A stretch of DNA of 64,000 bases from Escherichia phage vB_EcoS_AKFV33. The notes under the pieces are model-generated. The model saw only the letters and a program-made list of their open reading frames with translations, was not told the origin of the DNA and did no database searches. Shown piece by piece: positions 49 to 291 of this stretch (position 1 is the first letter of the stretch; every line of letters begins with the position of its first letter). Location of the stretch: the sequence record NC_017969.1. One strand, given 5' to 3'. The position numbers and the translations under genes are program-made.

Positions 49-125
49 CATTCTAGACAGGACTCGAACCTGTTATCACTTGTGCGGACTTACGAGAACC
101 ATTCTTTCACTCGAATCGAACGAGC
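49..125 (-). tRNA. tRNA-like element, identity unresolved
   Basis: canonical T-arm (ACAGG-TTCGAGT-CCTGT as reverse complement of 57-73) and acceptor 3' half; a perfect 7-nt acceptor partner only occurs at 163-169, giving an implausible ~120 nt. Confidence 0.25.
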
Positions 126-291
126 TTCTGCCCTCGCCAAGCTGGTTTCCCCACCAACCACGCTAGAATGTTTGATTGTTTTCAGTGCAAGAGTCCGAGT
201 CTTGGACACGACCGCTTTGCAAGTACATAGGCAGCTTATCATGAGTCAGCACTTCCGAATTGCTAGCTCCGTGTTCTGCACTGAAATTTTA

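Follow-up and report, generated by a model that had tools for sequence, protein, structure and literature searches.

A tRNA-shaped RNA family represented by RNA2 in the tRNA gene cluster of Escherichia phage vB_EcoS_AKFV33

The first positions of a 64,000 nt stretch of the genome of Escherichia phage vB_EcoS_AKFV33 (NC_017969.1; the whole of this stretch is called the window below) hold the parts of a tRNA, spread over more than the length of an ordinary tRNA gene. What kind of RNA, if any, is encoded there? A sequence-only reading had noted a T arm and acceptor 3′ half at 49–73, a perfect 7 nt acceptor partner at 163–169 and, between them, a second T-arm-like hairpin (109–125) and a D-arm-like TGGT...ACCA; it did not state the strand explicitly, and considered two overlapping degenerate tRNAs, a tRNA with an insertion or another structured RNA. 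When the minus strand, which is that of the RNA, is read directly, all of these elements are present at those coordinates: the T arm is canonical, the acceptor partner forms 7/7 pairs, the second hairpin has a T-loop-type loop, and TGGT at 160–157 pairs with ACCA at 146–143. The idea of two degenerate tRNAs fails, since the acceptor, D, anticodon-stem-like and T helices form one nested molecule and covary together, and the other two alternatives were essentially right, the locus combining a tRNA frame with a conserved 55 nt structured domain. Minus-strand window 47–170 is the ortholog of phage T5 rna2/RNA2, as indicated by BLAST and synteny. It probably represents a conserved, non-decoding, tRNA-shaped RNA family of the tRNA arrays of large virulent phages, which may be processed as a tRNA and use its insert as a binding module.

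Identity of the locus

The element lies at the margin of a tRNA gene cluster of the T5 type and is to be read on the minus strand. Comparison with T5 st0 (AY692264) gives 96.3 % identity over 161 nt, with 'rna2' annotated beneath the match; the annotated T5 feature is 125 nt long and maps to window 46–170. Hand-annotated rna2/RNA2 features are found in three records (T5 st0, AY692264; BF23, NC_042564; Salmonella phage 5, AJ604531), and the T5 record AY543070 is likewise labelled RNA2. Identity to the annotated RNA2 records is 96.3–96.6 %, the few substitutions relative to T5 including a D-loop G for A and a T-stem A–T for G–C. Synteny with T5 is also kept, with RNA2 downstream of an ORF (open reading frame) of 115 aa (T5p065/ORF trn 2.10) and upstream of RNAIV. 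T5 RNA2 is thus the same gene as the window element, from which it differs in nothing substantive.

By BLAST, the region is 96–99 % identical across hundreds of T5-like phage genomes, and the first 3 kb of the window matches 484 phage records, nearly all from T5-like Salmonella or Escherichia phages. In most of the other genomes the stretch is unannotated or lies under a spurious 'hypothetical protein'. The locus as such is therefore already known as an annotated feature. The GenBank note on the rna2/RNA2 misc_RNA reads 'tRNA-like RNA with unknown functions', and the database entries give neither structure, family nor function. Full-text searches of the literature covered returned no paper on T5 RNA2 or on tRNA-like RNAs of T5-like phages, so that knowledge of it consists of the GenBank annotations. 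The RNA2 family is absent from Rfam, and its secondary structure and wide range appear to be undescribed.

Fold of RNA2 and comparative evidence

The element, 170–47 on the minus strand, is made up as follows, given in three parts from the 5′ end.

5′ part: C ATTCTAG CG TGGT TGGTGGGGAA ACCA G CTTG GCGA GGGC A GA A
Middle: GCTCG TTCGATT CGAGT GAAAGAATGGTTC TC G TAA GTCC GCA CAAG
3′ part: TGATA ACAGG TTCGAGT CCTGT CTAGAAT G AC

The features, with window coordinates, are these.

47–170, minus: whole RNA2-family element, 124 nt as modelled (cmsearch 136.2 bits, E 2e-32)
169–163, minus: acceptor 5′ strand ATTCTAG; 7/7 pairs changed on both sides across the family
C170:G49, minus: possible extra (eighth) acceptor pair
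143–160, minus: D arm, stem TGGT (160–157) with ACCA (146–143) and G-rich loop TGGTGGGGAA (156–147)
138–141, minus: 5′ strand CTTG of P2, the anticodon-stem equivalent, paired with CAAG; G142–T78 is a possible added G–U pair
83–137, minus: conserved insert of 55 nt in place of the 7 nt anticodon loop
130–133, minus: P3 5′ strand GGGC, paired with GTCC at 86–89
127–128, minus: P3b 5′ strand, G128 and A127, paired with C94 and T95
125–109, minus: P4 hairpin GCTCG-TTCGATT-CGAGT, whose heptaloop (114–120) is a second loop of the T-loop type
96–108, minus: 13 nt strand GAAAGAATGGTTC that leads from P4 back to P3b, with little or no variation among the 17 lineages
94–95, minus: P3b 3′ strand, T95 (the variable 'N' of TTCNCGTAA) and then C94
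90–93, minus: conserved G-UAA between P3b and P3, a 3 nt UAA bulge plus G93 opposite A129
86–89, minus: P3 3′ strand GTCC
79–82, minus: P2 3′ strand CAAG, with the same evidence as the 5′ strand
74–78, minus: variable-loop equivalent TGATA, 5 nt
73–57, minus: canonical T arm ACAGG-TTCGAGT-CCTGT
56–50, minus: acceptor 3′ strand CTAGAAT, followed by G49 and then ACA; CCA is not encoded

A MAFFT alignment of 17 divergent lineages was used to build a covariance model. In these lineages 36 columns are invariant, mostly in the insert and the T loop. Pairs were counted on a second alignment, A3, which contains 31 distinct members. Amongst these sequences, 95.4 % of base-pair cells are standard, compared with 30–45 % for slid partners and 75 % for shuffled partners, and 23 of the 29 pairs are changed on both sides. 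Covariation scores 0.525, and the shuffles 0.156, with none of them (0/500) as high as the observed value. The acceptor, D, P2 and T helices also emerge from RNAalifold, which predicts a structure of its own. Folding of the single sequence gives an energy only modestly below that of shuffles (z=–2.0). The case rests on the comparative evidence, which places the element far above chance and by which the identity and fold of RNA2 are well supported.

Family members score 90–138 bits against the model, and the window element matches it over its full length. It has the tRNA-like frame and an insert of the form xGGGY...(T-loop hairpin)...GAAAGAAUGGUUCNCGUAANUCC, and its 136.2 bits compare with no more than 37 for tRNAs. 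Ordinary tRNAs from the same loci and from T4 reach 20–37 bits, as 75–78 nt matches with the central ~55 positions deleted. That tRNAs match only when the insert is deleted shows that the outer frame is tRNA-like and that the insert defines the family.

The helices differ in how they are conserved. All four D-stem pairs are changed on both sides, for example TGGTG/CACCA, TGAC/GTCA and GCCG/CGGC. In P2, 100 % of cells are paired and 4/4 pairs covary, the forms encountered being CTTG/CAAG, CCTG/CAGG, CCTC/GAGG, CTCCG/CGGAG, CCCAT/ATGGG, CCGCA/TGCGG and CAGACCA/TGGTCTG; this anticodon-type stem is 4–7 bp long across the family. Three of the five T-arm pairs are changed on both sides, with GG/CC and the loop invariant. 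Within the insert, the last pair of P3 (GGGY/RUCC; columns 45:87) is C–G in 20 rows, U–A in eight and other in three, the remaining P3 pairs being invariant. In P3b, the pair 48:81, between the base after AG and the 'N' of UUCNCGUAA, is AU in 22 rows, UA in five, CG in two, GC in one and other in one; all four Watson–Crick combinations therefore occur, next to an invariant G47–C82. The UAA is invariant, and the facing columns 46:83 are mostly A.G, which is not a standard pair. Four of the five P4 pairs are changed on both sides (GCTCG/CGAGT, TACGG/CCGTA, ATGG/CCAT, CCCG/CGGG, GCTGG/CCAGT), and the P4 loop, UUCGAUU or UUCAAUU, fits the T-loop consensus. P4 is followed by the 13 nt strand, which reads GAAAGAAUGGUUC as RNA. 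The frame stems thus vary freely while the insert is held nearly invariant in sequence, and the insert is predicted to form one long irregular arm, consisting of P2, an internal loop, P3, the UAA bulge, P3b and P4.

Three other pairings were considered and rejected. The minimum free energy structure of the single sequence pairs GCGAGGGC with GGUUCUCG; of the pairs that this requires, 40:82 is broken in 13/31 rows and 41:81 in 9/31, whereas 48:81 pairs in 30/31. An 'anticodon-like' hairpin, AUGGUU-CNCGUAA-RUCCRY, has no pair changed on both sides and is 69 % paired; it is kept solely as a possible alternative conformer. RNAalifold also pairs the invariant columns 60–63 with 72–75, in conflict with the covarying P4 stem, and this pairing may possibly reflect a tertiary contact. 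In addition, column 42 of alignment A3 (window 133) is perfectly associated with columns 91–92 (window 85–84), as G42 with G91–C92 in 26 rows and A42 with A91–U92 in five rows (two clades). The association does not fit a nested Watson–Crick pair, and may arise because P3 competes with an alternative AUGG/CCAU hairpin.

The element has the acceptor stem, D arm and T arm with canonical T loop of a tRNA. No standard tRNA of 75–90 nt had been missed at the locus, where neither ARAGORN nor Rfam makes a call: ARAGORN reports no tRNA below window position 666, and the Rfam tRNA model RF00005 has no match at the locus at its gathering score, nor at E≤10 on positions 1–700. A permissive Rfam scan of the same positions (E≤10) returned only two weak, irrelevant matches, both off the locus. 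P2 (CTTG/CAAG) closes the 55 nt insert rather than a 7 nt loop, and the unpaired residues that flank the insert's helices provide neither U33 nor R37. The tail is G-ACA, with no encoded CCA, whereas in 11/13 of the window's tRNA genes the discriminator is followed by an encoded CCA; CCA may possibly be added to RNA2 after transcription, and three members of the family only happen to have it. Judged by these features, RNA2 is not a decoding tRNA.

Distribution of the family and relation to known RNAs

A sensitive BLAST search with window 30–190 matched 465 phage records, 295 of which cover at least 80 % of the query. More divergent relatives were obtained from pattern scans of IMG/VR, GTDB genomes and metagenomes, and by BLAST, and homologs are found in approximately 12 divergent lineages. 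They include Pantoea phage AAS21, Serratia phage Slocum, Klebsiella Sugarlandvirus phages and the Acinetobacter phages Acj9 (T4-like Straboviridae), W16 and AB1I1P. Members also occur on uncultivated contigs, namely L009 (160 kb), L034 (164 kb), L078 (167 kb), L090/L096 (247 kb), L094 (10 kb) and L085 (1.46 Mb).

The family usually lies inside tRNA arrays, between or directly after tRNA genes. The element directly follows a tRNA-Gly in Acj9 (by annotation) and in contig L009 (by ARAGORN), where it exactly fills the gap between two tRNAs. The L085 member, at 6022–6140, lies between tRNA-Gly and tRNA-Pro. The L034 member has no tRNA gene within 10 kb. A conserved protein neighbour was looked for across the family and was not found.

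A core-pattern scan of 185,579 genomes gave 33 loci, of which 32 were chance matches in coding DNA and one was the phage-like 167 kb contig L078. Searches of PLSDB plasmids and of 5,426 complete E. coli genomes turned up no RNA2-family copy. Matches on the viral contigs L024, L035–L045, L047–L051, L097 and L099–L102 were rejected as chance.

With canonical tRNAs, RNA2 shares a 7 bp acceptor stem, a D arm with GG, a 5 nt variable loop and a T arm of the GGTTCGAGTCC type. Its gene is on the same strand as the tRNA cluster that contains it, and the family model matches real tRNAs weakly through the frame. Unlike them, RNA2 has no anticodon loop and no CCA, carries a 55 nt structured insert and is called by neither ARAGORN nor RF00005. 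The T4 species 1 and 2 RNAs (rnaC and rnaD) likewise come from the end of a phage tRNA cluster and are small stable RNAs without a known function; rnaC has a tRNA-like T arm and acceptor end. They show no homology to the insert, however: rnaC scores 18.4 bits through the frame only, and rnaD is unmatched even with filters off. They are positional analogues and not family members.

Group I intron-containing tRNA genes, such as cyanobacterial tRNA-Leu (UAA), similarly carry a structured insert in the anticodon loop of a tRNA frame. Their inserts are at least 200 nt long compared with 55 nt here, and RNA2 has no group I core or Rfam match, nor do its flanks rebuild an anticodon loop. Transfer-messenger RNA (tmRNA) resembles RNA2 in having its two ends paired as an acceptor/T-arm module, with the functional part inside; RNA2, however, is three times smaller, lacks the alanine identity pair, a conserved reading frame and pseudoknots, and is negative with ARAGORN.

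T5 RNA1, a 144 nt RNA of the same cluster (AY692264, 559–702, minus strand) that lies outside the window, offers another comparison. By eye, it has a Leu-like tRNA frame with a long variable arm, in which a long irregular hairpin takes the place of the anticodon arm. Its insert differs in sequence, and it is not among the listed matches of the family model. T5 may therefore carry at least two RNAs scaffolded in this way.

Several features of the surrounding DNA were also recorded. Window 1–27 (minus strand) is the start of the homolog of T5 RNAIV, of which about the first 27 nt, ATGTAGGTTCCGATAGATCGGCGGGTC, are included. In T5, RNAIV is 103 nt long and is annotated as a stable RNA with unknown functions; there, RNA2 is followed by RNAIV and then a promoter. 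The 115 aa ORF directly upstream of RNA2 (292–639, minus strand) belongs to phrog_3972, which has no assigned function. It has no Pfam match; residues 75–102 form a weak excisionase-like stretch, and the ORF is labelled 'putative excisionase' in some genomes.

The window contains 11 tRNA genes according to ARAGORN and 13 according to Rfam, all of them minus-strand genes located within 666–6447. The two called by Rfam but not by ARAGORN, at 4011–4085 (38.2 bits) and 6376–6447 (35.5 bits), are low-scoring and may be further tRNA-like RNAs or pseudo-tRNAs. The second has the tail AGA and, unlike nearly all the other tRNA genes here, does not encode CCA. The tRNA-Asn (GTT) at 1293–1375 (minus strand) is 83 nt long, with about 10 extra nt in the variable region (ucgaaagaca), which is unusual for an Asn tRNA.

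In many other phage records, short 'hypothetical protein' coding sequences lie over the RNA2-family element on either strand (for example, Acj9p148 in HM004124, AAS21_gp115 and Slocum_106); these are most likely annotation artefacts. The array in metagenome contig Ga0308158_10000004 (L085) is extreme, with 47 tRNA genes in 8.3 kb (1–8283). In phage W16 (PP174317, 1596–1826), and likewise in L046, a 76 aa ORF with an RF-1 domain (PF00472, E 3e-10; phrog_20323), by eye without the GGQ tripeptide, lies about 20 nt past the RNA2-like element. Anticodon-CTA tRNAs ('tRNA-Pyl', amber-suppressor-like) are present in Acinetobacter-type arrays, at 7053–7127 in L078, where the tRNA is immediately upstream of the RNA2-like element, at 6751–6823 in L046 and at 1259–1331 in Acj9.

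Possible function and alternative explanations

The fold and context suggest how RNA2 might work. It would be transcribed with the adjoining tRNAs and cut out by the tRNA-processing machinery, with RNase P producing the 5′ end and the 3′ end being trimmed. The tRNA frame would serve maturation and confer tRNA-like stability; the position among tRNA genes, and the exact fit into the gap in L009, agree with the frame being a maturation substrate. In the insert, the GG of the 13 nt strand may dock on the inner T-loop, as G18 and G19 of the D-loop do on the T-loop of a tRNA, and this would produce a second 'elbow' at the tip of the long arm. RNAalifold pairs C58 with G77, that is, the C56-like C with the second G of the 13 nt strand.

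The invariant domain would be the working part, offering a surface to which a factor shared by widely differing hosts could bind. Its presence in phages of Enterobacteria, of Acinetobacter and of unknown hosts suggests that the partner should be universal and should recognize tRNA shape. The most likely function, although put forward tentatively, is a trans-acting binding or decoy role, in which RNA2 would titrate a tRNA-recognizing host or phage protein; a cis role comes next. A decoy or titrator would be favoured over a substrate of translation. Phage tRNAs, including those of T5, neutralize tRNA-cleaving defences such as PARIS and retron effectors (PMC11464382, PMC11555353, PMC10264068), and by analogy a counter-defence role for RNA2 is plausible.

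A number of points weigh against this interpretation. Alignment A3 was fitted to the model and many of its rows are close relatives, giving an effective sequence number of 2.17. The most conserved part of the element is invariant, which places the proposed tertiary contacts beyond a covariation test. The Acinetobacter-phage members have weak acceptor and D stems or lack them, so processing of the tRNA type may not extend to the whole family. Nothing in the sequence points to a binding partner, and the sole suggestive neighbour, the RF-1-domain ORF, is confined to one lineage. GenBank describes RNA2 as 'tRNA-like' and RNAI, RNAIII and RNAIV as 'stable RNA'; on our reading, which the records do not state, the existence of RNA2 as an RNA perhaps rests on sequence alone. 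In a separate comparison by eye, the insert was set against 5S rRNA, the GTPase-associated centre of 23S rRNA, the sarcin–ricin loop, the 11 nt GAAA receptor, the kink-turn and the hammerhead, and its conserved positions matched none of these motifs.

A role in cis, in which the element would serve a polycistronic tRNA transcript as a spacer for processing or folding, or as a signal for transcription or stability, and would not be a free trans-acting RNA, is unlikely. The location in or beside tRNA arrays, at times exactly between two tRNAs, would suit such a role, as would the RNAIV and promoter that follow RNA2 in T5 and the analogous small RNAs at the end of the T4 tRNA cluster. However, a spacer would not need 55 nearly invariant nt shared by phages of such different hosts, the L034 member has no tRNA genes near it, and no terminator- or promoter-like signal beyond chance was found around the element.

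It is quite unlikely that the locus is a tRNA gene whose anticodon loop is interrupted by a short and perhaps mobile intron, so that splicing would yield a decoding tRNA. The insert lies exactly at the tRNA intron site, it is conserved while the 'exon' stems differ by lineage, as expected of a mobile insert, and the unpaired residues flanking P3 number about 4+3=7. In addition, the 4 bp helix with a 3 nt bulge loosely recalls a bulge–helix–bulge motif. These residues (GCGA...GCA, CCUA...GCA, GCGG...AUA and others) nevertheless do not form a canonical loop, since U33 and purine 37 are absent and their total length ranges between 6 and 8 nt, and removal of the insert leaves no YU-NNN-RN loop around P3 or P2 in any lineage. 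There is no Rfam match (E≤10) to a group I or II intron, for which 55 nt is far too small, and we know of no bulge–helix–bulge endonuclease in bacteria or in these phages. The lack of proper acceptor and D stems in the Acinetobacter-phage members, and of the CCA that neighbouring tRNAs encode, also argues against an intron.

Descent from two tandem tRNA genes, fused and decayed into a functionless pseudogene, is very unlikely. The first 72 nt can be drawn as an acceptor, D arm, T arm (P4) and partial acceptor 3′ strand (AGAATG), and the remainder resembles an anticodon arm (loop CUCGUAA), T arm and acceptor 3′ strand; phage tRNA clusters are, moreover, recombination hot spots (PMC12483538, del-1 region). 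A decaying pseudogene would not be expected to show 36 invariant columns together with compensatory substitutions in six helices across phage families. The AGAATG match is confined to the T5-like lineage, the CUCGUAA hairpin is the poorly paired, non-covarying one rejected above, and the would-be U33 takes all four bases and covaries with column 48. Covariation therefore largely refutes this explanation.

Least likely of all is a miniature tmRNA-like or peptide-encoding RNA, with a tRNA-like domain and a short internal frame ending at the invariant UAA: its architecture parallels tmRNA, the NCG triplet before the UAA is variable at its first base and the W16 element is followed by the RF-1-domain ORF, but the ARAGORN tmRNA search is negative, position 3:70 is U:A and not the G3:U70 alanine identity pair, the 124 nt element has no pseudoknots, and the small-ORF or tag-peptide reading is contradicted by a 1 nt deletion in the Klebsiella Sugarlandvirus member, which shifts the frame relative to the UAA, and by the pairing of 'N' with column 48, which accounts for its variation.

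RNA2 is thus best regarded, from comparison of its relatives, as a member of a structured, non-decoding, tRNA-like RNA family that is under strong selective constraint in distant phage groups, and not as a decayed tRNA. A structured RNA at this locus explains why annotation pipelines leave the stretch blank or fill it with spurious 'hypothetical protein' ORFs. A bolder and rather doubtful proposal is that RNA2 is the founder of a widespread class of 'two-elbow' tRNA mimics in the arrays of unrelated large virulent phages, in which the frame would be only a scaffold for processing and stability, and the 55 nt domain, by means of its second T-loop and the docked GG, would capture a universal tRNA-recognizing factor. 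If this is true, the class would range over T5-like siphoviruses, T4-like Acinetobacter myoviruses and uncultivated jumbo phages, and its domain might blunt tRNA-targeting antiphage nucleases or reprogram tRNA processing or translation during infection. Non-decoding tRNA-like RNAs have been annotated amongst phage tRNA genes for about 20 years without a function; RNA2 is a testable candidate for a new RNA family and possibly for a new phage counter-measure or regulator.

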